A stretch of 52,442 bases of DNA from a virus (lineage: Duplodnaviria; Caudoviricetes), in the IMG/VR virus record IMGVR_UViG_3300034378_000127, positions 1 to 52,442 of that record. One strand, given 5' to 3'. The notes beneath the pieces were generated by a model, which saw only the letters and a program-made list of their open reading frames with translations, was not told the DNA's origin and searched no databases. The position numbers and the translations under genes are program-made. Below are positions 43 through 52,442 of this stretch, one piece after another. Position 1 is the first letter of the stretch; the number at the start of each line of letters is the position of its first letter.

Positions 43-94
43 AATACCTCCTGCGGTAGTGCACCGAACTATAAATTGAAAGTGCAATTTATTT

Positions 95-263
95 TGCACA
101 ACGGCATGGCAAATGCACGAAGTATTGCGCCTATAATAAAAAAAGTGCAACGCATAGTTTGTTGGCTGCTGCGTTGCACTACTGGACACACTAAAAACGG
201 TCAGTGCTTCTTAATGATACAATATAATTCATGCGCAACATTTTGTGCTTTGCCTGTTAGCTG
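95..263 (-). repeat. attC-like site (long, ~169 bp)
   Basis: tgcacaac-ggcat-ggcaaatgcacgaagtattgcgc ... gcgcaacattttgtgctttgcc-t-gttagctg; nested hairpin in the loop; TAA stop of the upstream ORF lies in the core. Confidence 0.8.
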
Positions 264-418
264 TTGTGCTGCGATTCCGTTTTATCCTGCGGTTTTGCGG
301 ATTCCACAGACACAGACAGTATAAGTCCACCAATTTTAATTAGACAAGGGTTCGGCAATTCGATGTCTTTCGAATCGGCGTATACTTCACGAGTAACCTT
401 CAAAATGTCTTCTGGCAT
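257..418 (-). CDS. Cassette-encoded hypothetical protein, 53 aa (MPEDILKVTREVYADS...QHNS)
   Basis: Read by hand (below the ORF-track cutoff); AAAGGTGG SD; stop TAA inside the GCTAAC core. Confidence 0.65.
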   Translation of the reverse strand: MPEDILKVTREVYADSKDIELPNPCLIKIGGLILSVSVESAKPQDKTESQHNS

Positions 419-481
419 AATAGCCACCTTTCATTAAATGGTTTACAGATAGCAAAACCGCCTACAACATAAGCTGCATTG

Positions 482-637
482 CAGCTAACGTTCACCGTAC
501 TGTGCGAAGTTGCCGTTGTACAACATCGAAAAAGTCTATACAAATATCCATTGGTGTTTCAGCCACCTTGTATTCTTCACAATAATCGCTCCATAAATCT
601 TCAAATAACGGCAATTTTGCACTGCGGGTGTTATGCG
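482..637 (-). repeat. attC-like site (long, ~156 bp)
   Basis: cagctaac-gttc-accgtactgtgcgaagttgccgtt ... aacggcaattttgcactgcgggt-gttatgcg. Confidence 0.8.
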
Positions 638-809
638 CTGTTGAGCAAGTACCATTTTTAGGTTTGCAATACTTTCGGTGAATAGAACCGTCTTTACCAT
701 CATAAATTACGGTGCAAAGAGTACCGCACTTGGTACACCATCTTTTCGTATAACCATAACGGTTAGTATTTTCCTCACAGATTGTTCTAAACACATGCTT
801 ACATCTCAT
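492..809 (-). CDS. Cassette-encoded Cys-rich hypothetical protein (likely start MRCKH), reads through the attC
   Basis: CKH...CTKC motif; ATG at 809 lies just inside the cassette 5' repeat; the track start at 863 lies inside the upstream attC. Confidence 0.55.
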   Translation of the reverse strand: MRCKHVFRTICEENTNRYGYTKRWCTKCGTLCTVIYDGKDGSIHRKYCKPKNGTCSTAHNTRSAKLPLFEDLWSDYCEEYKVAETPMDICIDFFDVVQRQLRTVR

Positions 810-840
810 AGTTGCAAACCTACAATTAAATTTAAGAGCG

Positions 841-900
841 AAATGGTGAAGCGCTGAAAGCATTTGGCAAAGCCCGTCAGCACCATTTATTTGTTGCCTG
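841..900 (-). repeat. Degenerate attC-like site (one core lost)
   Basis: aaatggtg...caccattt stem and gttgcctg core present; expected cgcataac core absent. Confidence 0.6.
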
Positions 901-1324
901 CTGTTTGGCTCCGCTCCGCATTATTCTGCGGCGCATTACCACGAAGAATGAAAAGACAGCACGGCGACGGGCTACGCCAAGGCTCACCCGTATCCTTCTC
1001 TAAAAAACGCACACGCCCTGCGGACCTGATTTCGGCCCCTGCCGCCGCCAAATGCATCACATACGACTGACAGGGCAGTAATAAAACAGAGCCGTTCCCC
1101 CGCTTGTGTTCGGCGATAGCTTTATGCGCAAAAGCCGTTGGTCCTTTGCCGCCAACCCCGTCGTGACGACGGAACGGCGGATTCACATAATTCATGCTGC
1201 CCCACGGTACATCGAGACTGTTATACCCTTCCGGCTTGGGGTACGGGCAGGGGTCGAAATCAAAACAAAACTCCCGGTCCAGCGACTCATATAGTGCGGG
1301 AGGGGTGATCCAGTAACTTGACAT
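887..1324 (-). CDS. Phage-type DNA N6-adenine methyltransferase (Dam-like), cassette-borne
   Basis: WITPP..Y..LD.EF.FDFDPCP N-terminus and YVNPPF catalytic motif. Confidence 0.85.
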   Translation of the reverse strand: MSSYWITPPALYESLDREFCFDFDPCPYPKPEGYNSLDVPWGSMNYVNPPFRRHDGVGGKGPTAFAHKAIAEHKRGNGSVLLLPCQSYVMHLAAAGAEIRSAGRVRFLEKDTGEPWRSPSPCCLFILRGNAPQNNAERSQTAGNK

Positions 1325-1373
1325 GATTAACCTTTCTTTATGCGCCGCCTACAAAATGGTCGGAGCCAAATTG

Positions 1374-1431
1374 CAGGCAACGTGATGCCAAACGGCGGTA
1401 GTTTTAATTACTCGCCTTTGGCTGTTGCACG
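1374..1431 (-). repeat. attC-like site (58 bp)
   Basis: caggcaac-gtgat-gccaaacggcggta...tactcgcctttggc-t-gttgcacg with an extrahelical base. Confidence 0.85.
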
Positions 1432-1437
1432 ATGTAT

Positions 1438-1665
1438 TCACGATTCCGAAACCCAGGCTTGCAAATCCTCATCGTAAACAGCAGCACAGTCTTGACACCG
1501 CAAAAGCCCCTTGTGCTCGAAACGCCTTATGTGCGGACACTCATTTTCCATGTACGGATCAAGGTTGCGTTCTTCTTCCAAGTACCGAAACTCTCCGACG
1601 TGAGAGCACTGGAAACCAACAAAGTCTTTTCTGCGCACTAATTTGCAAGCCATACAATTCCCCAA
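1438..1665 (-). CDS. Cassette-encoded Cys-rich hypothetical protein
   Basis: Fills the cassette; CPH and CQDC motifs; start may be ATG 1653. Confidence 0.6.
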   Translation of the reverse strand: MGNCMACKLVRRKDFVGFQCSHVGEFRYLEEERNLDPYMENECPHIRRFEHKGLLRCQDCAAVYDEDLQAWVSES

Positions 1666-1677
1666 GAGTGAATATTT

Positions 1678-1874
1678 TGTGCAACGTCAGAATTACCCGA
1701 AGTGCCGTTACGACTGCATATAATAGCCATGAATTGGGCAATCTTTATTAATAATTAATGATAAAGACGCACTAATAATTTTGCCACTTGCATCCGTATT
1801 TTTATAATGAAGACCATTTTCTTTACAAAGGCATTTGGGCGAACCCTGTGAGCCGGGTAATTCGTTGTTGGTGG
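1678..1874 (-). repeat. attC-like site (very long, ~197 bp)
   Basis: tgtgcaac-gtca-gaattacccg ... cgggtaattc-gtt-gttggtgg. Confidence 0.7.
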
Positions 1875-2031
1875 ATGTAACATTGCCTTCCATCGATTTT
1901 TCGGCTGGTTTGCCACAATAGATACAGCGCCGCACTCCAGTACAAGGCATGCGCCCTGAGCAAGCGTATGAATGCTCCTTACACTCCACCGTTTCAACTT
2001 TGCCACACCAAGCAATAGTTTTTGTCCACAT
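1708..2031 (-). CDS. Cassette-encoded Cys-rich hypothetical protein, reads through the attC
   Basis: GGAGG SD; CKEH...CIYC; the C-terminal half is encoded inside the attC. Confidence 0.6.
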   Translation of the reverse strand: MWTKTIAWCGKVETVECKEHSYACSGRMPCTGVRRCIYCGKPAEKSMEGNVTSTNNELPGSQGSPKCLCKENGLHYKNTDASGKIISASLSLIINKDCPIHGYYMQS

Positions 2032-2073
2032 GATATCCTCCAGCCGACTATAAATTAAAAGGCAATGTTATTT

Positions 2074-2134
2074 ACACCAACGTTTGACAAATGGCAGATG
2101 TGCTGAAAGCATTTTTGCCTTTGTTTGTTGTTTG
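2074..2134 (-). repeat. attC-like site (61 bp)
   Basis: acaccaac-gttt-gacaaatggcagatgtgc-tgaaa-gcatttttgcctttgtt-t-gttgtttg. Confidence 0.85.
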
Positions 2135-2198
2135 TCTGTTTGTAAATCACCTACAATATTTTAAATCCTGTTTGCGCCGAGTTTTTAAGTTTTTGTTT

Positions 2199-3413
2199 TT
2201 AGTAAAAAAGATTAGGTTCTTTAACTTCACCGGAGTAGCCTTTGTTTAAAATATCATCGACCGTAATAAGTTCAATAAAAATTCCCTCTTTTTTTACTCT
2301 TGCAACCTCTTCTTTTGCACCTTTACCAAAACTAAAACCAACAATATAACCTTTCATCTTTTTAGTTTTAGTATTTCTATAATATCTTCTTATTGCTGTT
2401 TCAAAATTATCAACAACATTTCTACCTATTTTTTTTGATTGTTTAACCTGAATAGGACAATGCTCTAAAAAACTAAGACCATCTATACCCATGTCACCAG
2501 ATTTTTTTGGACTTGGCACACCATGCATTTCGTTGATAACCCAATATTGAAATTCATAAGGTTTGAAATCTTTTAAATCTTCTGCTTTCTGTGGCATACC
2601 AATAACATTATAATTTTTGTAAAACCCCGGAATATTAGCAAGTCTCTTTTTAATTAATGCCACAGCAGAGGGGGAAATATCAATACCTATCCATTTGCGG
2701 CCTAATTTTTCAGAAACAGCCAAAGCAGTACCGCATCCACAAAATGCATCAAGCACAATATCATTTTCATTTGAAGATGCTTTTATTACTCTTTCCAAAA
2801 GAGCTTCAGGCTTTTGGGTTGGATAACCTAATTTTTCTTTGGTTGAAGATTGAAGCGCAGCTATTTCCCAAACATCCCTAACAATAGCGTCTCTATATTG
2901 TCTTCCGTCTTTATCAATTTTAAAATCATCTTTTTTAAAACCATATTTATGTTGCATATATGAGCGTTCTGTCATGTAATTAAAAGTCCACTTGCCTGTT
3001 TTTGTATAAAATAAAAGTGTGTCGTGTTTTCTCGACCATCGCTTTTTTGTTGCGCCTTGTGTTCTGTAAGCCCAAGCAATTTCGTTTTGAAAATTTTTAT
3101 ACCCCAAAATTTCATCACACATTACTTTTAAGTAATGGGAAGCATGCCAATCACAATGAAGATAAAAGGAGCCAGTGGATTTTAATACTCTATGTAACTC
3201 TATAACCCTATCACGCATCCAATCAATATAAACATTAATACCACCTTCCCAACGGTCTTCAAAACTTCTTATTTCAGCCTCATCGCTCCAAATAATTTCA
3301 TAATTCCTGTTACTAAAAAAAGGTGGGTCGATATAAACAAGGTCAATGCTTTCTGTTTCAAATGTAGACAATATCTCTAAATTATCACCACAATAAAGTT
3401 TGTTTTTATCCAT
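2199..3413 (-). CDS. N4/N6 DNA methyltransferase (beta class) fused to a C-terminal Mrr-like PD-(D/E)xK domain; cassette-borne
   Basis: YIDPPF, YPTQKPEALL, LDAFCGCGT motifs; C-terminal GDMGIDG...IQVKQS; visibly AT-rich. Confidence 0.85.
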   Translation of the reverse strand: MDKNKLYCGDNLEILSTFETESIDLVYIDPPFFSNRNYEIIWSDEAEIRSFEDRWEGGINVYIDWMRDRVIELHRVLKSTGSFYLHCDWHASHYLKVMCDEILGYKNFQNEIAWAYRTQGATKKRWSRKHDTLLFYTKTGKWTFNYMTERSYMQHKYGFKKDDFKIDKDGRQYRDAIVRDVWEIAALQSSTKEKLGYPTQKPEALLERVIKASSNENDIVLDAFCGCGTALAVSEKLGRKWIGIDISPSAVALIKKRLANIPGFYKNYNVIGMPQKAEDLKDFKPYEFQYWVINEMHGVPSPKKSGDMGIDGLSFLEHCPIQVKQSKKIGRNVVDNFETAIRRYYRNTKTKKMKGYIVGFSFGKGAKEEVARVKKEGIFIELITVDDILNKGYSGEVKEPNLFY

Positions 3414-3540
3414 TATAAATCCATTTTTATAAAATTGTAGTATTAAGTTTATATTTTTAAATTAATTTCTTTTGTTTTTCGGCGCAAACCTATAATCCAG
3501 TGGTTTACAAATTGCAAACAACTAGAGGTTATATGAACCT

Positions 3541-3753
3541 CTATTTTTTATAAATCTTTCTTATCTTCTTACTTATCAATGGTTTAACTATTTTCATTGG
3601 TTCCTCAAGACTCAAATAAAATTCTCTTATTTTTCTTCTCCGGATTTCTTTACGCCATCTGGAAATAAGCTCATCAAATGTTTTCAAACCGTAAAATTTT
3701 CGCCAATGATTCAACACGGCATGATTCTCAACGCTCAACGCAATAGTCTTCAT
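3541..3753 (-). CDS. Small basic protein, probable ribbon-helix-helix DNA-binding protein
   Basis: MKTIALS.E....L......G.KTFDELI pattern. Confidence 0.5.
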   Translation of the reverse strand: MKTIALSVENHAVLNHWRKFYGLKTFDELISRWRKEIRRRKIREFYLSLEEPMKIVKPLISKKIRKIYKK

Positions 3754-30575: not shown

Positions 30576-30880
30576 ATGCGTCGTATCAACATTCCCAAAC
30601 CTGCATCTGTACCAGTAGCAAATATCTTGTGCATATGCACCGGCTGATGCCATCCGCCTGCAAGCATATGCTTTTCTGTTTTCTGAGCATCCGTTTGGTT
30701 TTGTGTTCTTGATGTAACTGAGCCGTCAGTGTCAATCATACAAGCTGTAGCATCAATGTTATTTCCATCAGTATCCTTAACGACAACATCGTCTCCTGCG
30801 TCAAGAGTAGTCGATATTTCGACAGGATTATTATATCCAGGTTCGTTTGCGCTGGGAAGAGTTATTGTAACTTCTGCCAT
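30572..30880 (-). CDS. Small virion protein, head-spike-base-like
   Basis: C-terminal AG..HP....KIFATGT-like pattern resembles GTA head spike base proteins. Confidence 0.5.
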   Translation of the reverse strand: MAEVTITLPSANEPGYNNPVEISTTLDAGDDVVVKDTDGNNIDATACMIDTDGSVTSRTQNQTDAQKTEKHMLAGGWHQPVHMHKIFATGTDAGLGMLIRRI

Positions 30881-30897
30881 TTCAGTTCACTCCTTTG

Positions 30898-31089
30898 TTA
30901 TTTGTACCGATGTGAAAAGAAAAAGAAATATGGTTTCGCTGTTTCAGGCGATGACGCTTGTGCGAAAGAACCCCATACGTAGGCACGGTCATATCCATCA
31001 ATCGAACCATCAGGCATCGGAAAGTTACCAATTCTGCCCAAACCGAAGCCAAGTGCCATCATTCTCTCTCGTCTATTATCAATCGACAT
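30898..31089 (-). CDS. Small hypothetical protein
   Basis: AAGGAG SD; P.PDGSID..DRA. Confidence 0.6.
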   Translation of the reverse strand: MSIDNRRERMMALGFGLGRIGNFPMPDGSIDGYDRAYVWGSFAQASSPETAKPYFFFFSHRYK

Positions 31090-31101
31090 AACTCAATCTC
31101 C

Positions 31102-38243: not shown

Positions 38244-39598
38244 CTTCCCATTATCATTTTATCGAGGGCACTTGTTGTTGTTTCAGCTTGCTTTTTATCT
38301 TCACGTTCTTCAAGATCCCTGCTCGTTATCATCATCGGTTTCAGAGATATCATATCATTCTCCCATGCGTAACCAAGAGAATCGACAGAATGATTGTCTC
38401 GGTCAACAGGCACGGGAAGAGTATTGCCAAAGCGATCTTTCTGCCACTGATATGTACTGAACTCATTGATGGTATACTGACAACTCTTATCGATGATCCA
38501 TCGTTGCTGTTGCATCCACTGTATTCTGAAGAGAACTGCTGAGCCTTTCCCTTGTGCAAGTCCTCCGAACAATCGTCGTTTCTTGCCTGGATGAGCGTTG
38601 ATTTTATACTGCCGCAGTTCTGCAATTGACTTTGGTTCAGCACTGTCACACCAGACGATTTCCTTCCCGCAATATGGTTCAATCTTTGCTGCGATAATAT
38701 CGTTCGTGCATCCATGCTCATAGATTTCTTTTGTAACGTAAATCGTGTTGCGTCCATTGTATCGTCCTGTGCCTGTACCTCGTGCCGATTTTGTGTATGC
38801 AAAGGGGTCTGCCGCGTAGCCAAAGTCAAGTCCATGTTTGTAAAGAGGAAAGTCGATTGTCGATAAGTCCTCTGTGTCCCAGTTCTTGAATATGAGATCA
38901 CCAAGCGTGCCCCACTTGCCAAGTCCGTATACGTTGAAGTAGAATGGATCTGTGTGTTTGAAGGATTCAATTCTTTCGATGTCTTCCTTATCAAGAAACT
39001 CATTATCTTTGTAGGTTGTCTTAAGAATAGCGACTTTATCAGTACGTTTCTCTCCTTCAATATCTTGTCCATTGAAAAAGCGTTTGCATATCCAGTGCAA
39101 TCTCGATATTGGATTAAAGCTGAATGTAACGCGCTTTGGCACTGGAGCTCTACCACGTAATCTGAGTAGCAATTGATTGAAAGCTGGTTCTGAGATTTCT
39201 GTTGCCTCCTCGACCCAAATATCTGTAATAATTCCTTTCTTCGGTTTAATTGATTTGAGCTTCTCAGGATCATCCAATCCTCTGAAAAGCATCTGTTGTC
39301 TTGTAGGAAGATAGGTGATGGATAAATCACTGAGGTTGACTTGAAAAGCTCGGGCGACACCAAATGATTCAATTGTCTCAACCACCTGATTGAAGACGGA
39401 AGAGCGAAGTGTATTCGCGATGTTTCGTACAATGAGGTAATTGCGTGGATAGCGAAGAACATCGAGCACAACACGTTGAGCAAGAAAATGTGACTTACCA
39501 CTGGAGCTACCACCATAGAGGATTTGTAGAGGTGTTTGGTCGTCAAGATATTTTTTATAAACTTCATTAAAAATTTCACTGTGGACTATTAATTCCAT
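38240..39598 (-). CDS. terL: Terminase large subunit (PBSX-like)
   Basis: GGSSSGKS Walker A, WVEEA, SFNP, GLDFGY, CDSAEP, NHSVD. Confidence 0.95.
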   Translation of the reverse strand: MELIVHSEIFNEVYKKYLDDQTPLQILYGGSSSGKSHFLAQRVVLDVLRYPRNYLIVRNIANTLRSSVFNQVVETIESFGVARAFQVNLSDLSITYLPTRQQMLFRGLDDPEKLKSIKPKKGIITDIWVEEATEISEPAFNQLLLRLRGRAPVPKRVTFSFNPISRLHWICKRFFNGQDIEGEKRTDKVAILKTTYKDNEFLDKEDIERIESFKHTDPFYFNVYGLGKWGTLGDLIFKNWDTEDLSTIDFPLYKHGLDFGYAADPFAYTKSARGTGTGRYNGRNTIYVTKEIYEHGCTNDIIAAKIEPYCGKEIVWCDSAEPKSIAELRQYKINAHPGKKRRLFGGLAQGKGSAVLFRIQWMQQQRWIIDKSCQYTINEFSTYQWQKDRFGNTLPVPVDRDNHSVDSLGYAWENDMISLKPMMITSRDLEEREDKKQAETTTSALDKMIMGR

Positions 39599-41888: not shown

Positions 41889-42170
41889 TTTTTAATACAC
41901 ATTTAATATACTTTTAATACAACAAACTTACATATATAGTACATATTTTTTACTTTACATTTACTCAATTATATTTTCATTTTTTTATATTATAACTTAT
42001 TGATATATATTATTATATATTATTATTTGTAAATTATAATATAATTATAAATGTATATAAATCAATGACTTACAGGATAAAGCAATAAAACACAAGTAAA
42101 GCATAGGTAATGTATATATATTTGTTGTATTAAAGCTATATTAAAACTGTATTAAAATTATATTAAAAAC
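41889..42170. repeat. AT-rich palindromic non-coding element with 11-bp iteron-like arrays, copy 2 (origin candidate)
   Basis: TTAATA at 41892/41903/41914; TATTAA at 42128/42139/42150/42161; tttaatacaacaaa / tttgttgtattaaa inverted pair. Confidence 0.7.
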
Positions 42171-42851: not shown

Positions 42852-43154
42852 TCACCTCCTATTATTTAAGAGTAAAAATTCCATTCGTGCAGCTTCTTTT
42901 TCATAAATCCCCTTTTTATTAATTGGTTTTCTGTATTGTAACCAATTTTTCATTGATAAGACTGTTGTTTCTAATCTATCAAGTAACAGTAAAAGGTCTT
43001 TGTACATGCGGTCGTCTCTCTCTTCTTGTTCAGCTTTGAGTTTAAGGTCACGAATTGCTTGATTCCAATTTTCATCTTCTTCATTATTATACTTCATAGT
43101 ATATTTTGGATTAAAATCTTCCAAAATTTCAATTATTTCTTGTAGAGTTTTCAT
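42852..43154 (-). CDS. Hypothetical protein
   Basis: Coupled ORF. Confidence 0.6.
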   Translation of the reverse strand: MKTLQEIIEILEDFNPKYTMKYNNEEDENWNQAIRDLKLKAEQEERDDRMYKDLLLLLDRLETTVLSMKNWLQYRKPINKKGIYEKEAARMEFLLLNNRR

Positions 43155-45253
43155 ATCATCTCCCCTGTTTCTATCAACTCAATTACTTCTTCATTTATTT
43201 TATATGCTTTTTTACGTCCTGCCAAAACTCCTTCTTTATTTATTGTGTCAAGAACACCGAGCATCGATAAATTTTCAAGTACACGTTCCCCTGTCGGCCA
43301 AGCAGCAATTCTGACTTCCTCACTTATCTCTCTTGAAGACCATTCACGTGCACCATGTTCTCCCTGTAGATACATACTATCGAGAAAATTAAGTGACAAT
43401 GAAGGAATCGTTCCTCGGGCAATTTGCTTTATTGCATTATAATCTTCTTGAGTAGCTTTCGAATGTCCACGAAACTGGGCTATTCCAACAATTTCTTTTG
43501 TCAATTGTTTCACAAGACGAGTACCAAGTTCTGTATAAGGTTTCTGAGTCACCTCTCTTGTGTAGCGATCCCGAGAAACAGTGCCTCGCATCATTGAAGT
43601 TAATTGTGCTATCGAGTCAAGTTTATTTTCAATAGTTGCTGGAATAGTTGACATCTTTTTATAGGCATGAGAAAGCACTTTGACTGACATCTCATTAAGT
43701 TCTTTTTTCATCTGTTCCTCTCGTCCGACATTTGATCGAGCTTTTTGTAAATATTCACGTCTTTCTTTTAAAGAAGAAGGCAATGGAATTATATATCCAA
43801 GAAATCTTTCACCCAGTGATGAACATGCTTCAATATATTGCTCGACAGCAGGAGTCACAGCAGCGATTATACCAAATGTTGATTTAAACGATTTTATTCC
43901 TCGACCAAACGCCTTCTCTGACCGTCCATCATATGCTGAACGAAGTATACCAAATATTTCGTCTCTCTTCTGTGGAGGAAGTTGTAAGATAGTAGTGAAA
44001 TCTTGAATCACTAACACTTTACCATCTAGCTGTGGAATAAGAGAAGGGTCAGCACCTGTTTCTGAACGGACTCCTGATATAAGGGCATATTGATTAAGAG
44101 TTGTTGTTGTGACAATCTTCGGTGCTCCTCTGAGAGACATTAAAGGTTCTGTTTTAGTCGCCCCAGGCGGAGCTATTATAAACATCCATAAGGGATCTCC
44201 TGGTATTCGATTTGCGATCACAGTGCTAAATAAAACATCAATCATTGTCACATCTGGAAGATGAAGCCATTTTCTGAATTTTCGATAAACCTCTTTGTGA
44301 TTAACCCGTTCACCTTTTAACTGATTACCAGCTTTAAGTTCTACATTCGTTCTTGAAGTTTCATCATAGCCAGGAGGATGTTCTTTAAAGAATGATTTCA
44401 ATTTTTTATAAGTGAGCTCTGCATTATAATTTGACATCTGATATAAATCTCTAACATCGCCTCCAACTGAAGTTCCCTCAGGCCAGTTAATACATTTTAT
44501 GTCATAAACAATTCCTTTCAATGTCTCAAAAGTTTTCTGGCAACCCGCTTCTCCCGCCTTATCATTATCATAAGCAAGATAGACTGTTTTATCTGTAAAG
44601 AGACTATTCCAATCTGTTTTAAACGTACCAGCACCAGGAACGCCGACAACATATTCAGTCTGTTTTTCCATATTGAATAATATTTCATCAATCGTCAAAG
44701 TATCCCATTCTCCTTCACAGATCCAAATCGTATCATATATCTGCATATTCTCCCATCGATAGAGTCCGACTGAGCATCCAGCAGTAGAAAGGATATTTCT
44801 ACCAATATGGTAATGTCGTAAGTCATGCAGATTCCTAGGATTCCCAGGTTCAGGAATTGGTATTGTATAAGCATCAGTATTGATATTATATCCAATTCCA
44901 GCACGGCGAAGAGTTTGCAGATTGAGACCTCGATTCACGGATAACTTATTTCCTGTTTCATCATTAAATTCTTTTACAGAAAATAAATGTATCCCTCGAA
45001 GAAATGTAGCAAATCCACCACCTTTGGCGCAGACTTTAGTCGCACCGCGTTTACATTGCCATTGCTTTGTTTTTTCATTAACACTAAAATGTTTCTCTTT
45101 ACCACAGAAGGGACAATTACCTATTCGTTCATTTCCTGAACGTTTTGAAAAGACAACTCCGTGCTGAATAAACGCTCTGAGAGGATCAGGTCGTTTTTTA
45201 CTCGGCTCCGAAATAGGGAGTGCCCTTTTCGGCACTTTTCTTTTTACCGGCAC
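43151..45253 (-). CDS. Primase-helicase (Zn finger + TOPRIM + AAA+/MCM-like ATPase)
   Basis: CPFCG..H...C, ICEGEWD, YDND.AG, APPGATKT, LRSAYDG, LGERF; start GTG 45253 after GGAGG. Confidence 0.85.
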   Translation of the reverse strand: MPVKRKVPKRALPISEPSKKRPDPLRAFIQHGVVFSKRSGNERIGNCPFCGKEKHFSVNEKTKQWQCKRGATKVCAKGGGFATFLRGIHLFSVKEFNDETGNKLSVNRGLNLQTLRRAGIGYNINTDAYTIPIPEPGNPRNLHDLRHYHIGRNILSTAGCSVGLYRWENMQIYDTIWICEGEWDTLTIDEILFNMEKQTEYVVGVPGAGTFKTDWNSLFTDKTVYLAYDNDKAGEAGCQKTFETLKGIVYDIKCINWPEGTSVGGDVRDLYQMSNYNAELTYKKLKSFFKEHPPGYDETSRTNVELKAGNQLKGERVNHKEVYRKFRKWLHLPDVTMIDVLFSTVIANRIPGDPLWMFIIAPPGATKTEPLMSLRGAPKIVTTTTLNQYALISGVRSETGADPSLIPQLDGKVLVIQDFTTILQLPPQKRDEIFGILRSAYDGRSEKAFGRGIKSFKSTFGIIAAVTPAVEQYIEACSSLGERFLGYIIPLPSSLKERREYLQKARSNVGREEQMKKELNEMSVKVLSHAYKKMSTIPATIENKLDSIAQLTSMMRGTVSRDRYTREVTQKPYTELGTRLVKQLTKEIVGIAQFRGHSKATQEDYNAIKQIARGTIPSLSLNFLDSMYLQGEHGAREWSSREISEEVRIAAWPTGERVLENLSMLGVLDTINKEGVLAGRKKAYKINEEVIELIETGEMI

Positions 45254-45446
45254 TTGACGCCTCCGTCTTTGATCCACTTATTAATTGTTCAATGATCTTG
45301 TTAGCTTGTTCGATGTAAAGCGAGATTTTCAGCAATTGATTTTTGCTCAACATCGATTGGCCGGCATGAAATTCGGTTCCCGTTTCCCGACAGATACGTT
45401 CAATATGTTCTCGTCTGCCCGGATTTCTTGTAAGATAAGGTGACAC
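45198..45446 (-). CDS. Hypothetical protein
   Basis: Fills the gap between polymerase and primase. Confidence 0.5.
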   Translation of the reverse strand: MSPYLTRNPGRREHIERICRETGTEFHAGQSMLSKNQLLKISLYIEQANKIIEQLISGSKTEASSAGKKKSAEKGTPYFGAE

Positions 45447-45448
45447 TG

Positions 45449-47209
45449 TTAAATCTCCTCGGCTTCTGCCCAAGTCTTACCGTTTTTTGCGAGTGAAAAT
45501 TCAACTTCTAATGGAACATTTATTTCTGGAATGGCTATCATTGCATTTCTTATCTCATGTAATAAGTCATTAAATAGATATTTTGTATTCACGACGCTTT
45601 CATGTACTTCAAATATTATTTCATCATGAACAGTTAATACTATGTAAACGAGATTTTTCCATGATTTATTATCTATTATTTTCTGTATATTGACTTGTCC
45701 GCGCTTGATTATCCCTGCCGCTGTCCCCTGAATATAGTAATTAAGCCAGCTATATAATTTATCGTAAGGAATTTGTAACTTTCGTCCAAATGGAGTTGTG
45801 ACTATTCCATCATTTCGTTTACATATATCAATACCACTCGATACGAGATTCGCAATTTCTGGATACTGATTACAGTATTTTTTATATCCTGGCTCAGCTT
45901 CATATATTGATATTTTTAATGTATCTGCAATTTTTTGTAAACTAGCTCCATAACAAAGAGCGAAGTGTGCGTTTTTTGATACATCATAAAGGTCTGATGT
46001 CTTTCTTTTTCCTTTATAACGATTGCCAAACATCATTTCAGCAAACACTTCATGCGGATGTTCTCTTTTTTCAAGATGCTGTCTCATTCTTTTACAACCA
46101 GCAGCTTCAATAATCAGTCGCAATTCTATACCAGATTGGTCAACAGGCATTAATGCAAATCCTTCATGTGCTCTAAAACAACGACGAGCTGCTATTGTAT
46201 ATGGATTATCTTTTTTGGTTTCTTTTGCTACATTTTGTAAATTAGGAGTATCACATGCTTCTCGTCCAGTGGCTGCATGATTTGTTTTTAAGTTTGGATG
46301 TATTATTCCATTTGCATCCGTAAGTTGAGAATATCCTTTTATAATACCACGCCCTTTTGTATAAGAACGATGTCTTTTAAGAACATCAAATATTGGATGG
46401 TCTGTCTGCTCTTGCAATAATGAAAGAGTATCTTTATCAACTGAAGGTGATCCTGAACTAGTACGCTGTAAAATAGGAAGTTTGAGTTTTCCATATAAAA
46501 GGGCAGAGACTTGTTTCGGTGAAGCTAAATTATAATAATCATCAACGGCATCTATCAAATCAATCTCTGCTTTTTCAATTTCATGTTCAACAATTTTAAG
46601 CAATTCTTTTGATTCTTTCTCCGCATAGACAACTCCTCGTTGTTCCATGCGTTGCGTAACTTTTATTAATTCAATTTCATTTCTATAATCTGTATAAAGC
46701 TGAGGATTCTTATAGATTTCTGGAAACCAAGTATAATATAAAAGCATGGTTCGCTGACCATCGGCGATTTGATATTTTTCCATTTTCTTTCTTGGAATAT
46801 TCTGATAACCACCGAAAGCACGACCAAGTCTTTTGATTTCTTTGTCAAGATCACGTGACCAACCACTCAAAATCCATGCGACATAATCAAGTGAATGCTC
46901 AGGTCGTAAATTATCAAGCAATTGAGACATTATCATAGTATCATGCCAAGTTGTATTACAAGGAATTTTATAGTTATGCGCAACCAACATACCAAGCTCA
47001 AACTTCAAATTATGGCAAACTTTCTCAATAGATATTCTATTTAAAAATTGTTGCAATTCATTGTCTGGATGTTTTTCTACTCTTTTTACTTTTACTTTTC
47101 CTTCTTCATCACCAATACAATAGGCGAATATTCGGTCACCGTTATATGGACGAAATCCAGTCGTCTCCACATCAAAACTATTTATTATTGTTCTTCTTTT
47201 TACTGGCAT
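45449..47209 (-). CDS. polA: Family A DNA polymerase with 3'-5' exonuclease
   Basis: FDVETTG, HNLKFE, TGR..C..PNLQN, DQSGIELR, K...F...YG, NY.IQGTAA, VHDEI. Confidence 0.95.
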   Translation of the reverse strand: MPVKRRTIINSFDVETTGFRPYNGDRIFAYCIGDEEGKVKVKRVEKHPDNELQQFLNRISIEKVCHNLKFELGMLVAHNYKIPCNTTWHDTMIMSQLLDNLRPEHSLDYVAWILSGWSRDLDKEIKRLGRAFGGYQNIPRKKMEKYQIADGQRTMLLYYTWFPEIYKNPQLYTDYRNEIELIKVTQRMEQRGVVYAEKESKELLKIVEHEIEKAEIDLIDAVDDYYNLASPKQVSALLYGKLKLPILQRTSSGSPSVDKDTLSLLQEQTDHPIFDVLKRHRSYTKGRGIIKGYSQLTDANGIIHPNLKTNHAATGREACDTPNLQNVAKETKKDNPYTIAARRCFRAHEGFALMPVDQSGIELRLIIEAAGCKRMRQHLEKREHPHEVFAEMMFGNRYKGKRKTSDLYDVSKNAHFALCYGASLQKIADTLKISIYEAEPGYKKYCNQYPEIANLVSSGIDICKRNDGIVTTPFGRKLQIPYDKLYSWLNYYIQGTAAGIIKRGQVNIQKIIDNKSWKNLVYIVLTVHDEIIFEVHESVVNTKYLFNDLLHEIRNAMIAIPEINVPLEVEFSLAKNGKTWAEAEEI

Positions 47210-47210
47210 A

Positions 47211-47241
47211 AATAAAAAGGGAGGTCTTTTAAACCTCCCTT
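47211..47241 (-). terminator. Intrinsic terminator / attenuator between the SSB-like gene and the polymerase
   Basis: AAGGGAGGT-loop-ACCTCCCTT followed by TTTATTT. Confidence 0.6.
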
Positions 47242-47246
47242 ATCCC

Positions 47247-48044
47247 TTACCTGCAAACTATACAATCTTCAGCCCCAATAGCATCAAGCAACGCAACTTC
47301 ATCTTCATCGATTGCTCCATCTTCTGGATCAGAATAGTAACCAGCAGCCCTGAGCCCTTCCTCCGAAGTGCCAACAGGCCAGAAAACAAATCCCTTTACC
47401 AGTTTTTCAGCAATTTCTTCTACCTCTGTATCATTCTTGACTTTGATGCCTTGCTTGAGGCAAAACTTCACGGCTTCTCTTTGATAATCAATCCTTGGTT
47501 CTGCTCTCTGTCTACGAGGAGGTGTTCGTCTTACTGGTGAGTCCTCCGTAGAACTTTCTTCACCATCCTCAATTATCTGTAATACTGCAACATTGACGAA
47601 TGTTCTATTTGTGCCTTGTGTATGAGTTACTTCAATTCTGTATAAAGCTGCTTCGTCCTCGATAGATTTTACAATTTCAACAAAATCACTATCGAATACG
47701 AATTCTCCTTCTTTTTCTGTTTTGCTCCAATCAATCATTTCTTCGACTTCTTGACCATTCATTGAACAAAACCGACGGACTCGTGCAGCAGCATATTCAT
47801 TGAGTAATCCTTCCCATTGCCGCTGAACTTCACCCTCAAATTCGCCTTCAGTTACAAGCCAATCAATACGAATCTGAGGTTCTTGACGAGCCTTTGATAG
47901 TTCTGGACTAAACTGTTGCAATCGCACTATATAAGTGCCCGGCTCCAAATCTTGACTAGTGAATGGATTGTCTTTTAACTGCTTTGAACGTTCTTGCGCC
48001 TTCTTGGCTTGCTTGAGACGTTCTTTAAATGATACATCAGGCAT
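47247..48044 (-). CDS. ssDNA-binding protein-like (DUF669-like)
   Basis: LEPGTY.V, V.EGEFEG, acidic tail; follows the Sak4-like ATPase. Confidence 0.65.
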   Translation of the reverse strand: MPDVSFKERLKQAKKAQERSKQLKDNPFTSQDLEPGTYIVRLQQFSPELSKARQEPQIRIDWLVTEGEFEGEVQRQWEGLLNEYAAARVRRFCSMNGQEVEEMIDWSKTEKEGEFVFDSDFVEIVKSIEDEAALYRIEVTHTQGTNRTFVNVAVLQIIEDGEESSTEDSPVRRTPPRRQRAEPRIDYQREAVKFCLKQGIKVKNDTEVEEIAEKLVKGFVFWPVGTSEEGLRAAGYYSDPEDGAIDEDEVALLDAIGAEDCIVCR

Positions 48045-48071
48045 AAAGCCCTCCTTTCTTTAAAGAATAGG

Positions 48072-48977
48072 TTATCGGTTTTGTCGAGCAACTCGTCTTG
48101 CATCACGTTTTTTCTTTTCGAACTTCGCTTGTCTTATTTTTTCTGGTGGTTTACCATCGGTAAGGTCTGCATAAGTTTCTTTCTGCTTATTATTGAATGC
48201 GCGAATAAGATATTCATATGCCTCCTGTTCGCTATTACCCATTGGTATACGATGAATCTTCTCATTGTTCGTTGTTTTGAAGTGTCCATGCACATTTGAC
48301 TTTGCCATCACATAATCGTCACCGACAATTTGTAACCATCGCTCTTTATTTGCAAAATGGTAATAACCAATTACATCTGAGAACTCCCAATAGAATTGCA
48401 GACATGCTGGAGAAAAATTTGGTTCAATGCGAAAGGTGTTTCGGCCATCAAAAAGTTCGCGATCCGTTATTTTCTCATGCGAAGTGACCGAAAGACCGAT
48501 ATCGATTGCCTGAAAGCGTTTTTGTAAATTCTCAAACTCTGTGCGAACCATGCCCCACGTTTTGCCATAATCGTTCTTGTCAGATGGATGGATGCAGTTC
48601 TCGCGTTTACAAATGAATTCAAGCGCCCGTTTATACGCTGGGTCACCTGTGTCAAAACATGAGTGGTCGACCTTTCTTTTATCCTGTTCCAGAGCATCGA
48701 CCCATGAAACCCCCTCTTCCCAGGATTGCAGCAACGGAGTCGCAAAAAGCGATAAACCCTTTTGCGCCGCTTCCCAGCGGAAAAACAGGACTTTTTTCCC
48801 GAACTGGTCAACAAGGGAAGTCTTACCGATGCCTGTCATGCCATAAATCACGATCATATAGTCCGTCAACCGCTCAGGCACTTCGGTTCGCGCTGAGGGG
48901 ATAGAAGGTAATTTCTGACTCGTTACTTTTTGTTTAACTTTTGTTGATGGAGATATTGATTGTTTTTTGACCGGCAT
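48072..48977 (-). CDS. Sak4-like AAA ATPase / recombinase
   Basis: IYGMTGIGKTS, DYGK.W, TSHEK, SDVIGY, AKS. Confidence 0.8.
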   Translation of the reverse strand: MPVKKQSISPSTKVKQKVTSQKLPSIPSARTEVPERLTDYMIVIYGMTGIGKTSLVDQFGKKVLFFRWEAAQKGLSLFATPLLQSWEEGVSWVDALEQDKRKVDHSCFDTGDPAYKRALEFICKRENCIHPSDKNDYGKTWGMVRTEFENLQKRFQAIDIGLSVTSHEKITDRELFDGRNTFRIEPNFSPACLQFYWEFSDVIGYYHFANKERWLQIVGDDYVMAKSNVHGHFKTTNNEKIHRIPMGNSEQEAYEYLIRAFNNKQKETYADLTDGKPPEKIRQAKFEKKKRDARRVARQNR

Positions 48978-49147
48978 GCGCGGCCTCCTTTCTTGGCGAA
49001 AAAATCTATAACTTTCTGTAAATTGATAACTACTGGTTCAAATTCTCGAGATAATTCTTTCATTATTATCTTGAACTCGTAATTTATTTGTTGACCGAGA
49101 CACATTGTCGTACGCGAAAATGGACAGACTCTATTTTTCTTTTTCAT
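48923..49147 (-). CDS. Hypothetical protein
   Basis: ATG 49147 overlaps the upstream TGA. Confidence 0.45.
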   Translation of the reverse strand: MKKKNRVCPFSRTTMCLGQQINYEFKIIMKELSREFEPVVINLQKVIDFFAKKGGRACRSKNNQYLHQQKLNKK

Positions 49148-50106
49148 CCATCCAGCTCCGGCGAAACACAATCTTTTTGCACATACCCGTTGAGATGCCC
49201 ACAGGCACAAGCCTCGAGGAACTCGCATTTATAAGGCATCATGCACGCGAATTCGTTTTTGTACACTGCGCCTCCGCTGATCACATTCTCGGCGTCGATT
49301 AATTTCAGTTTCAGCTCCTCAGCGAATCTTCTCTTGTCCGCTGGCGTGAACGCTATCTCGTAACGATGGAAAAAATTATCAGGTTCTTTGCTTATGACGC
49401 TGATCATTCTCTCTGTATATGCTTTCAGCGTTTCCCCAATATGTAACTTGTGGCTTGGTTTTCGCACAATATTATAAAGCACGCCGCGGATATTTTTACG
49501 CGTGTTCTGCTCATAAATATAGGTATAAAATAAGCACTGAAAATCGAACGAGAGATGTTTCTGCAAGAAATCGTCTCGCACATGAGATTTTGTCTTATGC
49601 TCGATGAGCCAGGGTTGATTTTTCTTGTCCAGATACTCGCCATCAATTTTCGCCCGTAGCTTGTATTCACCGCATTCCGCTTCCCAAATCTGCTCAACGC
49701 GCTTGAATTGTTTCTTAGTGAAATCTTCATCATACCGCTCTAAGTAAACGATGAATAATGCCGTAGCTTGCGCGGCGTCGAACTGAGCGGCATCCTTAGT
49801 TTTCGCGGAACCCTTTTTATAATTTTCTTTTATAAACTCATCGAGCCATTTTTTGATTTTATCAATCGCCGGTTTCGATCCATTCGAGTAGATTTTATCA
49901 AGCACATCATGGAACATCGATCCGAAACCTGTATTCAGAACCTTATCCGGATGGCTCCAGCGGTTTATCGCCAATAGCCCGCGGAGACGACAACACATGA
50001 AATTTGCCAGCAAGGATTGTGTGATACCGTCGCGCAGCATATTATATTCCTTTTTCGATGGCGGTTGTAATGTCTTGATTGACTTCGACGTGCCCTTCTT
50101 GGTCAT
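49144..50106 (-). CDS. PD-(D/E)xK (RecB/Cas4-like) exonuclease
   Basis: GSMFH, KIDG, IEHKT, Q..FY, C-terminal C....CEF..AC. Confidence 0.85.
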   Translation of the reverse strand: MTKKGTSKSIKTLQPPSKKEYNMLRDGITQSLLANFMCCRLRGLLAINRWSHPDKVLNTGFGSMFHDVLDKIYSNGSKPAIDKIKKWLDEFIKENYKKGSAKTKDAAQFDAAQATALFIVYLERYDEDFTKKQFKRVEQIWEAECGEYKLRAKIDGEYLDKKNQPWLIEHKTKSHVRDDFLQKHLSFDFQCLFYTYIYEQNTRKNIRGVLYNIVRKPSHKLHIGETLKAYTERMISVISKEPDNFFHRYEIAFTPADKRRFAEELKLKLIDAENVISGGAVYKNEFACMMPYKCEFLEACACGHLNGYVQKDCVSPELDG

Positions 50107-50573
50107 AATAACGCCTCCTTTAGCTGTCGGATGGTTTGTAAATAATAAGGTGAGCTCGTCCCTCCGCTCCGTAGCAGCGCTGCTGGATGTATTATTCGCA
50201 CTGCTTCAGGAAACTCTTTTTTATAGTATTTCTCGGCAATAGCGCCGAGAAAAATAACATGTTTTGGTTTCACAAGTCGGAATATCTTCATCACGTTCTC
50301 AGCACAGGCAAGCACCTCATCAGATAATGGGTCGCGATTCTCTGGTGGTCGACACTGCACACAGTTATATATGTAGAAGGAATCTAAATTTATTTCTTTT
50401 AACATAATATTAAGCAATCTACCTGCAACTCCAGTGAACGCGATTCCGGTGACATTTTCTGAAGCACCAGGAGCCTCTCCGAGGAATAATACTTTAGCTG
50501 GAATTATGCCGCGTCCTTTAACAACTAGACGGCGTGTTTTATGTAAACGACAATTTTTGCAAAATTCTTTCAT
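50103..50573 (-). CDS. udg: Uracil-DNA glycosylase, family 4
   Basis: CKNC.L, LGEAPG..E, F.G.AG, C..CRPP.NR.P, HPAA; an in-frame upstream ATG at 50681 adds 36 cassette-derived residues. Confidence 0.9.
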   Translation of the reverse strand: MKEFCKNCRLHKTRRLVVKGRGIIPAKVLFLGEAPGASENVTGIAFTGVAGRLLNIMLKEINLDSFYIYNCVQCRPPENRDPLSDEVLACAENVMKIFRLVKPKHVIFLGAIAEKYYKKEFPEAVRIIHPAALLRSGGTSSPYYLQTIRQLKEALL

Positions 50574-50734
50574 ATGTTGTTGTGGGGAGTGATGTGCCAA
50601 CTCCTTAGATAACTGTGCGGCTTTTCTTTCGAGTCGATCACATCGCTCCTGCCAGTCTGATTCTAACATTCTATGATGCATAAATTGCCTTTCGTTAAAG
50701 CCGCACCTAAGTACATAGACTCGGCACAGAATTT

Positions 50735-50796
50735 ACCACAACGTCCGATGCATGGCCGATGTATGTACTCATATTTCGGCCTGCATTTGTTGTACG
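50735..50796 (-). repeat. attC-like site (62 bp)
   Basis: accacaac-gtcc-gatgcatggccga...tcggcctgcatt-t-gttgtacg. Confidence 0.85.
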
Positions 50797-51503
50797 CTGT
50801 TTTCAGAATCTCCACCAGTGCTGTTTTCGCCCTGGTCGAACAAAGACAATTGCGCTTGAGCATCTCGAAGCCGATTGCGGGCTATGTTTACATACTCTAA
50901 CTCTTGTTCTATGCAAATAAACCTGCGATTAAGAGCGTGGCAAGCCAATGCTGTTGTGCCACTACCAGCAAACGGGTCCAATACTAAATCATCCGGTTTC
51001 GTAAATAACTCCAAGCACCATTTGAATAAAGGCACTGGTTTTTGTGTGGGGTGGCATTTACCATCGCACTTGTTTATATAGGAATCAGCGCGGCTCATGT
51101 CAAAAATGCGAATTGGTTTATCGTTTGCGCTTGTCCACGCGATTTCACCATCAGTCATATACCCGCGCTGAATTTTGTTCCAAACAAGCCAGCAGCTACT
51201 TTGTGGCAACCGCATATAGTTGCCGCCCCACATTATTTGGTTTTGACTGACGCGAAGCATCTCTGTAATAACCTCAATATCTGGTGGCGCATTGTCCCAT
51301 TCATAGCAAGCATACCTCTTCCATCGACCACTATTAGAAACGCGGCCCGAATCACTTATTTGGTTTTGCGCCACATCATAACCGATACCGTAAGGAGGAT
51401 CAGTCAAAACCAAATCCACGCTCTTGTCACCAAGCTGCTTTAGAACCTCGTAGCAATCGGCGTGTATGATTTTACCGACCATGTTTTCTATTGTGTATTT
51501 CAT
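50769..51503 (-). CDS. N4/N6 DNA methyltransferase (beta class), cassette-borne
   Basis: LTDPPY, HPTQKP, LDPFAGSGTT; stop lies inside the attC. Confidence 0.92.
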   Translation of the reverse strand: MKYTIENMVGKIIHADCYEVLKQLGDKSVDLVLTDPPYGIGYDVAQNQISDSGRVSNSGRWKRYACYEWDNAPPDIEVITEMLRVSQNQIMWGGNYMRLPQSSCWLVWNKIQRGYMTDGEIAWTSANDKPIRIFDMSRADSYINKCDGKCHPTQKPVPLFKWCLELFTKPDDLVLDPFAGSGTTALACHALNRRFICIEQELEYVNIARNRLRDAQAQLSLFDQGENSTGGDSENSVQQMQAEI

Positions 51504-51541
51504 AAGGGCGAAAACCTATAAATTAAAAATTCTGAAAATGG

Positions 51542-51625
51542 CGTACAACGGGTTGCCAAACGGACGCTTTACAGTACACTAATCAAACAGGCTGCCCTGT
51601 ATTGCGCTCCTTTGGCTGTTGTGTT
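51542..51625 (-). repeat. attC-like site (84 bp)
   Basis: cgtacaac-gggtt-gccaaacggacgc...gcgctcctttggc-t-gttgtgtt. Confidence 0.85.
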
Positions 51626-51645
51626 TTGTAAAGTTGCCCACAATA

Positions 51646-51849
51646 TTAATCTTCAGCGGGCGGGTTATAATTAATTACTGGCTGCAATAGGTCAGCAAAA
51701 GTTAAGTTACCAGCCTCTATTTCATCTATAATTTTATTTCCAACTTGTTTAAAATCGCCAATTGTTTTAAGCCCATTATCATCACACACTTTCTTGGCAG
51801 CATCCTTGACAACACTAAACTGTTCTTTTGACAAATTTCTATAAGCCAC
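51646..51849 (-). CDS. Cassette-encoded hypothetical protein
   Basis: Fills the cassette; AAAGGA SD. Confidence 0.65.
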   Translation of the reverse strand: MAYRNLSKEQFSVVKDAAKKVCDDNGLKTIGDFKQVGNKIIDEIEAGNLTFADLLQPVINYNPPAED

Positions 51850-51905
51850 TTTTTGATCCTTTCAGTTTAGCCCGCTGACTTCAATACCAGCAGGCAAGTT
51901 TATTG

Positions 51906-51968
51906 AACACAACGTTTGCGCCTATACGATAGTACCGTTTCGGTATTTTGTATAGGCGCTGTTATGCG
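51906..51968 (-). repeat. attC-like site (63 bp)
   Basis: aacacaac-gttt-gcgcctatacgatagtaccg-ttt-cggtattttgtataggcgc-t-gttatgcg; upstream TAA stop in the core. Confidence 0.9.
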
Positions 51969-52222
51969 GCGTTGGCCGTTTCCTTAGATTTCTGCGCTTG
52001 CAAAACCGGCATAACGATTTTCTCGTAGATACGAATCTGTTTTTCGTAATCGGCATCACCGCTGCCAACAATTGCAATGACTGTGCCAACATCTAACCCC
52101 CGCAATTTAGAATAAAGGGTGCGAACCTCGTTGTTGTAAAAAAAATGATTAGCCCACCATTTGCCATGATACTTTAAACAGTATGACATCAAATCGTGTT
52201 CCAAATCTGCAACAAAATGCAC
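51962..52222 (-). CDS. Cassette-encoded hypothetical protein
   Basis: GGAGG SD; stop inside GCATAAC. Confidence 0.7.
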   Translation of the reverse strand: MHFVADLEHDLMSYCLKYHGKWWANHFFYNNEVRTLYSKLRGLDVGTVIAIVGSGDADYEKQIRIYEKIVMPVLQAQKSKETANAA

Positions 52223-52273
52223 AACGCCTCCTTTGCAAGCGCCTAATTTTTAAAGGCCAATGTGCGAAGCGAA

Positions 52274-52356
52274 CGCATAACGTCCGACACAGGCTGAAGT
52301 TGCGTCAAGCAATTTGGGCCGTAGCGACAGCGGAGCCAGCCTGTGTTTGTTGGGCG
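52274..52356 (-). repeat. attC-like site (83 bp)
   Basis: cgcataac-gtcc-gacacaggctg...cagcctgtgtt-t-gttgggcg. Confidence 0.85.
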
Positions 52357-52442
52357 CTGTTCGCGTCCGCTCCGCTATCAACTTTCGGCTCACAGGTATC
52401 ATCGTAGAGCAAAATGTTCGACACCATCCATTCGTAACCGCA
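52305..52442 (-). CDS. 3' fragment of cassette ORF (...CGYEWMVSNILLYDD...AQIA), truncated by window edge
   Basis: Frame is open from the window end to a TGA inside the attC. Confidence 0.5.
   Translation of the reverse strand, partial: CGYEWMVSNILLYDDTCEPKVDSGADANSAQQTQAGSAVATAQIA

Follow-up and report, generated by a model that had tools for sequence, protein, structure and literature searches.

We describe an array of small gene cassettes at the two ends of a 52,442-bp tailed-phage record (Duplodnaviria; Caudoviricetes; IMG/VR record IMGVR_UViG_3300034378_000127), which was analysed over its whole length and is called the window here; the record is classed 'linear' and is estimated to be 88% complete. 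Each cassette, or unit, is bracketed by its own pair of long inverted arms built of three stems, and a short hairpin separates it from the next unit. This architecture is real and recurs in unrelated phages. Our preferred reading, to which we give about an even chance, is that of an integrase-less integron-like cassette array, of the kind termed CALIN (cluster of attC sites lacking integron-integrase), belonging to a distinct phage-borne family with a GTTG core and placed in the early/replication region of a tailed phage.

Anatomy of the cassettes

Read on the coding strand, which is the minus strand of the window, a unit opens with GTTG (GTTA in two units), followed by stem A (7-10 bp), a mismatch of 2-4 nt, stem B (8-13 bp), an unpaired loop of ~13 nt, stem C (8-11 bp), a ribosome-binding site with start codon, and the gene; the stems then return in mirror order and the unit closes with CAAC. 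A hairpin of 46-68 nt comes next, so that the whole is framed ...CAAC/A ... AC/GTTG (slashes mark the edges). Stem C lies next to the start codon or contains it, and the loop often holds a TTTATAG-type box or a Shine-Dalgarno sequence. The arm duplexes have predicted energies of -36 to -57 kcal/mol, equal for the two strands. A TTTAATTTATAG-type box, exact in three units, lies in the unpaired stretch of the 5' arm; taken by itself this 13-nt loop box is not enriched in the window (11 matches with at most two mismatches, against 9.2 expected), and only its 3 exact copies lie in arms. The corresponding stretch of the 3' arm ends in GGAG or GGAA on the coding strand, and reading frames commonly traverse the entire 3' arm.

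We surveyed 38 cassettes on eight contigs (the window, L071, L154, L156, L157, L158, L164 and L165). Position 4 of the unit is a purine in all 38 (G in 32, A in 6), C precedes GTT in 34, and A follows AAC in 37. The mismatch has AA in the 5' arm where the reverse-complemented 3' arm reads TG, exactly so in 28 of the 38 and with at least the A against the G in 35, and the 3' loop opens with a TCC-type motif, again in 35. Units measure 155 to 1434 nt, many of them only 155-260 nt. Around these fixed core and mismatch positions the arm sequences differ between cassettes and match within each cassette; the family thus holds conserved as well as co-varying positions.

An earlier note on this DNA had listed inverted blocks at the right end of the window and had described their spacing as symmetric. 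All of these repeats are present where it placed them, and the symmetry is real by the recomputed offsets of the inner blocks. In unit 2 (the units are numbered as in the table below), 50789-50809 matches 51529-51549 (21 nt, 90%) and 50823-50833 matches 51505-51515 (11 nt, 100%; offset 34/34). The arms of unit 3 match over 51618-51638 and 51893-51913 (21 nt, 81%) and in an exact 9-mer, 51653-51661 with 51870-51878 (35/35); those of unit 1 over 50579-50603 and 50718-50742 (25 nt, 72%) and in an exact 10-mer, 50615-50624 with 50697-50706 (36/36). Unit 4 has a terminal 8-mer, 51961-51968 with 52274-52281, and an exact 11-mer, 51994-52004 with 52232-52242 (33/39).

Arm pairs were scanned for on the circularised window by gapped alignment of 50-nt arms anchored on GTT...AAC ends and 120-2600 nt apart, which gave 704 candidate pairs. 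Nine score at least 32; eight of these lie inside 50579-52442 plus 1-3522, and the ninth is 14382-16538. Forty dinucleotide shuffles produced a mean of 1.1 such pairs with a maximum of 6; at scores of at least 36 there are 6 real pairs, against a shuffle mean of 0.33 and a maximum of 3. Because the best shuffled pair scored 36-40 in 10 of the 40 shuffles, a single arm pair is not significant alone. The signal lies in eight non-overlapping pairs, most of them around one frame, that crowd into roughly one-tenth of the genome, and in the presence of the grammar in other phages as well.

Nine junctions, from the window and from L158, were folded as single-stranded DNA of the coding strand, with z-scores from -1.1 to -4.3. 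A central hairpin forms in eight of the nine, and AAC pairs with GTT in four of the nine minimum-energy folds. Six folds show a single bulged G or A on the arm opposite AAC, the 3' arm, 5-6 bp up from the stem base; in five of these six, 3-6 nt are unpaired between the stem and GTT, and the 5' arm goes from AAC almost directly into the stem. CAAAGG...CC(G)TTTG stem motifs recur in window and L158 junctions. The relative L071 has at 383-500 a long imperfect junction hairpin of 118 nt, about twice the length of the window junctions.

Many small open reading frames (ORFs) begin in stem C, cross the 3' arm as a linker rich in Ser, Thr, Asn and His, and end in a Cys-rich tail encoded by the junction (window 492-863 and 1708-2031; L157 5000-12295, minus strand); several of those in L157 are paralogues. 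The frames used vary between units, so that conservation at the nucleotide level seems primary.

Related arrays and the exchange of units

Relatives were collected through the PD-(D/E)XK nuclease gene that neighbours the array, and 69 viral and 80 metagenome loci of this gene were scanned. The grammar was found in only one of these, L071, a metagenome contig and the closest relative found, whose nuclease is 64% identical; three units stand there upstream of a uracil-DNA glycosylase (UDG) gene, and their cargo is wholly different from that of the window. The other relative at 64%, L072, has only 1.2 kb upstream.

The 5'-arm pattern led to 15 viral loci, six of them in arrays (L154, L156, L157, L158, L164 and L165). 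L157 comes from a complete phage genome of 253,664 bp (G001) with direct terminal repeats, and holds at least 15 units in 7 kb, mostly of 139-380 nt. The same phage has further arm-flanked units at 130228-136163, some 15-20 kb from the main array (150903-157855), so that several arrays can occur in a single phage. The contig of L158, 35 kb long with a G+C content (GC) of 55%, has at least 8 units, among them MT-A70-like, Dam-like and C5 methyltransferase genes (assigned by motif).

Two of these arrays have a unit in common. L156 4927-5208 corresponds to L158 7225-7512 at 95% identity over 288 nt, a stretch that comprises one unit and its downstream hairpin, whereas the backbone gene upstream of the two arrays is only 77% identical. 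After the backbone gene, L158 has four other units, then the shared unit, then a different one; L156 has just one unit, also different, ahead of the shared unit, and next to that a methyltransferase unit. The identity begins at AC/GTTG and stops at the AAAC/GTTG of the next unit (one case, outside the window). Since unit and hairpin are shared at 95% between different neighbours, we read this alignment as showing that whole units are exchanged between phages together with the downstream hairpin, with breakpoints that map to AC/GTTG, at the core. Moreover, the GC of the arrays converges on 44-53% whatever that of the backbone (33.5%, 39.6%, 40% and 55% overall in the four phages compared), which suggests that the units are drawn from a common pool.

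The array in the window and its neighbours

Table 1. Units, junction hairpins and bounding features of the array in the window (the coding strand is the minus strand)
Feature	Position	Strand	Remarks
UDG gene (uracil-DNA glycosylase superfamily)	50103..50574	-	backbone gene closing the array; likely true start 50574
Unit 1, 164-nt mini-cassette	50579..50742	-	5' arm 50742-50697, 3' arm 50624-50579
Junction hairpin, units 2/1	50743..50788	-	-14.9 kcal/mol, z -4.3; 0/200 shuffles fold as well
Unit 2, N6/N4 DNA methyltransferase cassette (ORF 50769-51503)	50789..51549	-	three-block arms 50789-50833 / 51505-51549
Junction hairpin, units 3/2	51550..51617	-	-14.3 kcal/mol, z -1.8; bulged base on 3' arm
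Unit 3, 67-aa ORF (51646-51849) of no known family	51618..51913	-	scan score 36
Junction hairpin, units 4/3	51914..51960	-	perfect 10-bp stem; -13.9 kcal/mol, z -3.8; 0/200 shuffles fold as well
Unit 4, 86-aa ORF (51962-52222) of no known family	51961..52281	-	scan score 38
Junction hairpin, end-spanning unit/unit 4	52282..52348	-	10-bp stem, z -1.1 (weak)
3' arm of would-be end-spanning unit	52349..52393	-	typical 3'-arm grammar; only the third-stem block matches 5' arm 102-59
5' arm, Shine-Dalgarno and start codon of end-spanning unit	43..102	-	conserved TTTCAATTTATAG box present
Left array part	256..3522	-	units 256-489, 893-1381 (Dam-like methyltransferase), 1424-1685, 1867-2081, 2127-3522 (404-aa N6/N4 methyltransferase); lone 3' arm 630-675
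8-bp hairpin directly upstream of the first unit's GTTG	3523..3543	-	marks array start

The right and left ends of the window carry one cassette grammar, and the figure of about 12 cassettes given by the earlier note agrees with our count: nine with paired arms and three that are partial or hybrid (the unit across the window ends, a remnant near 150-239 and the 3' arm 630-675). The same note had joined the two ends on a circular map. This is plausible, but unproven. For it speak the equal grammar and orientation of the two ends, the third-stem blocks of 102-59 and 52349-52393, which match at 8 of 10 positions at an equal offset of 35 nt, and a minus-strand frame that runs from 42 in frame into 52442-52305, a weak point, as two of three frames are open there. 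Against it, the record is classed as linear, with no terminal direct repeat and no overlap of its ends, and the first two stems of the two arms are unmatched, with no partner arm elsewhere in the window. As far as the sequence goes, it is plausible that the two ends are parts of one array.

Unit 1 has the repeats ascribed to it (scan score 32; arm duplex -41.6/-44.1 kcal/mol), but it is not a free-standing gene: this mini-unit has a short frame that continues in frame into the UDG gene. The UDG domain itself (Pfam UDG, 2.6e-22) covers residues 61-185 of a 192-aa frame, 50103-50681, and the homologue in L071 is 154 aa long and begins at the corresponding Cys motif, so that the true start is probably 50574. 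The first 36 codons of the long frame (50574-50681) are unit 1 sequence; the in-frame fusion could serve as a leader peptide or in translational coupling. In the junction between units 2 and 1, AAC pairs GTT; its 3' arm has one bulged base and leaves ~6 nt single-stranded ahead of GTT.

Unit 2 (scan score 42) encodes a methyltransferase (Pfam N6_N4_Mtase, 1.4e-28) whose frame runs through the whole 3' arm and stops within the hairpin; this protein has no close relative in viral contigs, the single match there being at 25% identity. The junction between units 3 and 2 has one stem motif in common with that at 1382-1423. The ORFs of units 3 and 4 have no Pfam or PHROG match. Unit 4 has the core variant GTTA...TAAC and uses the TAA of its terminal TAAC as stop codon. 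Over both window ends the cargo consists of three DNA methyltransferases (N6_N4 of 244 aa, Dam-like of 145 aa and N6_N4 of 404 aa) and small proteins without a family match, several of them Cys-rich; no second copy of any window unit was found. The unit of the 404-aa enzyme (2127-3522) has a GC of 31.9%, against 44-45% for the remaining array, and residues 300-389 of the enzyme give a weak match to Mrr_cat (restriction endonuclease). The hairpin at 3523-3543 comes directly after the small ORF 3541-3753 and could be the entry point of the array; this ORF, RHH-like according to the earlier note, has no family match.

Essentially all long frames of the window are on the minus strand. Near the array, at the right end, lie the genes for the UDG-superfamily protein (frame 50103-50681), the PD-(D/E)XK nuclease, an AAA_24 ATPase, a family-A DNA polymerase, a primase-type protein and a portal protein; at the left end lie those for a RuvC-like resolvase (3750-4238) and an SNF2 helicase. 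There is no close relative among GenBank phages, which have no nucleotide match to 43000-52442 and among which every record has less than 60% identity to the window DNA polymerase. No tRNA genes were found in the window. Two AT-rich intergenic clusters, 41889-42169 and 7115-7260, contain nested inverted repeats of TTTAATACA-type words; these clusters, which have nothing to do with the cassette grammar, may represent an origin or operator/promoter regions. At 30869-31444, four collinear inverted-repeat blocks of 8-9 nt each, on one antidiagonal, surround the start of a 1224-aa ORF, and these may be chance.

Candidate mechanisms and known systems

In the integron-like reading, the junction hairpin with its flanking AAC and GTT would be the recombination site, formed like integron attC by the folding of one DNA strand, and crossover would take place at the AAC/GTT core. 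The unit-specific arms would then be the outer part of the unit's own long hairpin stem, beyond the crossover, which insertion would leave at the far (5') end of the unit. Once the unit is an excised circle, or where single-stranded DNA loops out the gene, arms A, B and C would pair again and rebuild a perfect core box; within the array the core adjoins the non-matching arm of the next unit. The enzyme would act in trans and could be host-borne or a phage factor not recognised as such. Such a mechanism would account for the unit-specific complementarity, the sharp edges AC/GTTG and CAAC/A, the module of unit plus hairpin, and the cargo; three orphan DNA methyltransferases with small Cys-rich proteins fit an anti-restriction or accessory-gene reservoir.

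There is published precedent. Qi et al. 2023 (PMC9892861) report 17 integrase-less attC clusters in phages, virulent ones included, with cargo that includes five cassette methyltransferases, and integration by IntI1 at five of the six phage sites tested. For the attC site, Nivina et al. 2016 (PMC5027507) describe a recombined bottom strand with AAC on one arm and the extrahelical bases on the other, a 5-6-nt unpaired spacer, a variable tip and a length of 57-141 bp.

Several points weigh against the integron-like reading. First, the cores rarely fit the classical boxes: the box consensus GTTRRRY is present in one of the 38 surveyed cassettes and RYYYAAC in two, only GTTR/YAAC being conserved. 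Second, the folds have at most one bulged base, where attC has two or three (usually G first and T last, 6 bp apart), with no second bulged T, and an unpaired spacer on one arm only, where attC has one of 5-6 nt on each. Third, arms of 45 nt far exceed the 6 nt that an integron crossover explains, and the conserved loop boxes are left unexplained. Fourth, reading frames often traverse the 3' arm and the hairpin. Fifth, the bulge falls on the 3' arm when the coding strand is folded, which by the rule of PMC5027507 makes this strand the bottom-like one, the reverse of integron cassettes, and in Polaribacter phage P12002L, which has comparable units, the polarity is again opposite to that of the window family. 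Furthermore, each 5' arm has its own conserved box and ribosome-binding site, unlike promoterless cassettes on a common promoter. Sixth, two window units are hybrid: for the arm 630-675 and for the pair 102-59 / 52349-52393, the match between partners is confined to the third stem, so that exchanges with breakpoints inside the loop also occur, which points to ordinary homologous recombination at shared motifs acting as well.

The search for an enzyme and for a host also told against it. Six-frame searches for Phage_integrase (PF00589), Resolvase and Y1_Tnp (HUH) came back empty in the window, in the complete phage G001, and in G002 and G003; one integrase lies ~2.5 kb from the two-cassette cluster of G004. 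An all-against-all blastp of the ORFs of six phages (five with the GTTG grammar, and P12002L) found only N6_N4 methyltransferases common to at least three, and no common enzyme. Two motif patterns, which represent two sequence subtypes of the family and limit the search to these, were run against 185,579 bacterial and archaeal genomes. The 5'-arm pattern gave 116 single matches, about the number expected by chance, with no convincing partner arm (best score 34, next 25); the junction pattern gave one match, without the grammar, and in viral contigs occurred in L158 only. With no true copy of either pattern in these genomes, no host array or host enzyme is in sight.

The main rival, itself rather unlikely in our estimate, holds that the units are regulatory modules that double as recombination homology, in the manner of the PeSLs (promoter-early stem-loop modules) of T4-type phages. 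The arm and hairpin motifs would be expression signals, and the relaxed homologous recombination of the phage would act at 15-25 nt common to units, with no site-specific enzyme. This fits the long 5'-arm stretches and the loop box common to different units, the break of the hybrid units between stems B and C, the lack of any recombinase found, and the nuclease, ATPase, resolvase and helicase genes that adjoin the array; even the L156/L158 breakpoints fit it equally, as they sit where the arms of different units are alike. It leaves unexplained the three-stem match within a unit with divergence between units, and the sharp AC/GTTG and CAAC/A edges. Nor were the expected signals seen: a sigma-70 promoter scan found no site in any 5' arm, intrinsic terminators were likewise missing from the arms, and terminator-like sites in 50400-52442 were not above shuffles (3 against 2.4 expected). 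PeSLs of T4-type hyperplastic regions were reportedly described by Arbiol et al. in 2010 as direct repeats of a sigma-70 promoter with a local terminator hairpin. Like the window array, they combine a hyperplastic early region that holds small accessory genes with conserved intergenic modules of short length and with shuffling between related phages; they differ in that the window genes are each bracketed by their own inverted repeats and lack a detected sigma-70 promoter.

Equally tentative is a cassette exchange system distinct from bacterial integrons. Each accessory gene would carry along its site, a long split hairpin (GTTG core, fixed A/C-type mismatch, three stems). Pairing across the gene would rebuild this site, and an enzyme outside the recognised recombinase families, encoded by the phage or else a host enzyme specific for DNA structure, would process it. 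As all frames are open through arms and hairpins, the exchanges in such a system, if true, could also fuse N-terminal modules to Cys-rich C-terminal tails, a kind of domain shuffling.

We think it improbable that the arms work as an RNA-level device, pairing across the gene in the transcript, although such a role could coexist with the integron-like or the regulatory-module reading. The 21-23-bp stem with its internal mismatch would be an RNase III-type processing site or an end-to-end clamp, and stem C would mask the start codon and set stability or translation. The outer stem (A plus B) does make about two helical turns with a fixed internal mismatch, a length that fits the ~20 bp or more of double-stranded RNA for RNase III; the start codon lies in stem C or right next to it, a Shine-Dalgarno sequence is often present in the loop, and all genes of the window family share one polarity relative to the arms. 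However, neither duplex energies nor wobble pairs show a strand bias: the energies are equal on both strands, and isolated mismatches have no excess of G-U over A-C (24 against 43, most of the A-C cases coming from the conserved site). In P12002L the asymmetric mismatch has the inverse orientation with respect to the gene, which argues against a role tied to the mRNA. The methyltransferase units would need pairing across 700-1400 nt, and an Rfam search of the whole window found nothing at the gathering threshold; over 50400-52442 there was nothing even at E up to 5.

Still more improbable are non-autonomous transposon-like elements with terminal inverted repeats and a transposase elsewhere. 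Each unit does have terminal inverted repeats and a fixed terminal tetranucleotide, and many units, at 155-260 nt, are too short for a normal gene. But the arms are unit-specific and not common to copies, the flanks are AC and A with no target-site duplication, the unit shared by L156 and L158 includes the downstream hairpin, which lies beyond the repeats, no transposase was found, and units occur only in tandem arrays. Finally, we give practically no credence to functionless chance inverted repeats in an AT-poor stretch: shuffled sequence does yield single pairs scoring 32-40, but the eight clustered non-overlapping pairs compare with ~0.1 expected in that 5.4 kb, and the equal grammar in seven other contigs has already refuted this reading.

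Phage accessory regions carry anti-restriction and anti-defence genes, whose rapid turnover is only partly understood. A cassette system without its own integrase in virulent phages would, if real, be a defined route for this turnover, and the phages in which such arrays are seen range from 35 kb to a complete genome of 254 kb. AC/GTTG...CAAC/A with matched arms would serve as a signature for accessory genes in viral metagenomes, and the long split stems with their fixed mismatch offer handles for finding the enzyme.

Returning to the integron-like reading, its closest counterparts are other phage arrays. Polaribacter phage P12002L, one of the phages of Qi et al. 2023, has, in our scan, arm-flanked Mom-like and methyltransferase units at 37263-38038, 38087-38882 and 29225-30023, but both the asymmetric mismatch and the one-sided spacer are inverted there relative to the gene; the window family is set apart by its GTTG core, Shine-Dalgarno-type ribosome-binding sites and the opposite gene polarity. 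The phage CALINs, as presented in the sections of PMC9892861 used here, resemble the window family in their tandem single-gene units in virulent phages, folded AAC...GTT sites and orphan methyltransferases, and in having no integrase. Those sections make no mention of unit-specific three-stem arms, a conserved mismatch or a conserved junction hairpin, which are features of the window family; our scan of Tetrasphaera phage TJE1, a published CALIN phage, found none of the window grammar, and a full-text literature search found no description of unit-specific long arms.

From classical integrons the window family differs in having no IntI or attI, which is compatible with the CALIN subclass only, in complementarity of ~45 nt against 6-7, in its one bulge and one-sided spacer, in genes on the bottom-like strand, in many units of 155-260 nt, and in the absence of a bacterial counterpart for the two tested motifs. 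With classical attC it has in common the AAC/GTT hairpin, the variable apical part and, in those folds that show them, the unpaired spacer and the bulge opposite AAC, at a junction length of 46-68 nt plus core boxes against 57-141 nt; and, as in classical integron cassettes, a unit starts with bases complementary to its own end and units are exchanged whole.

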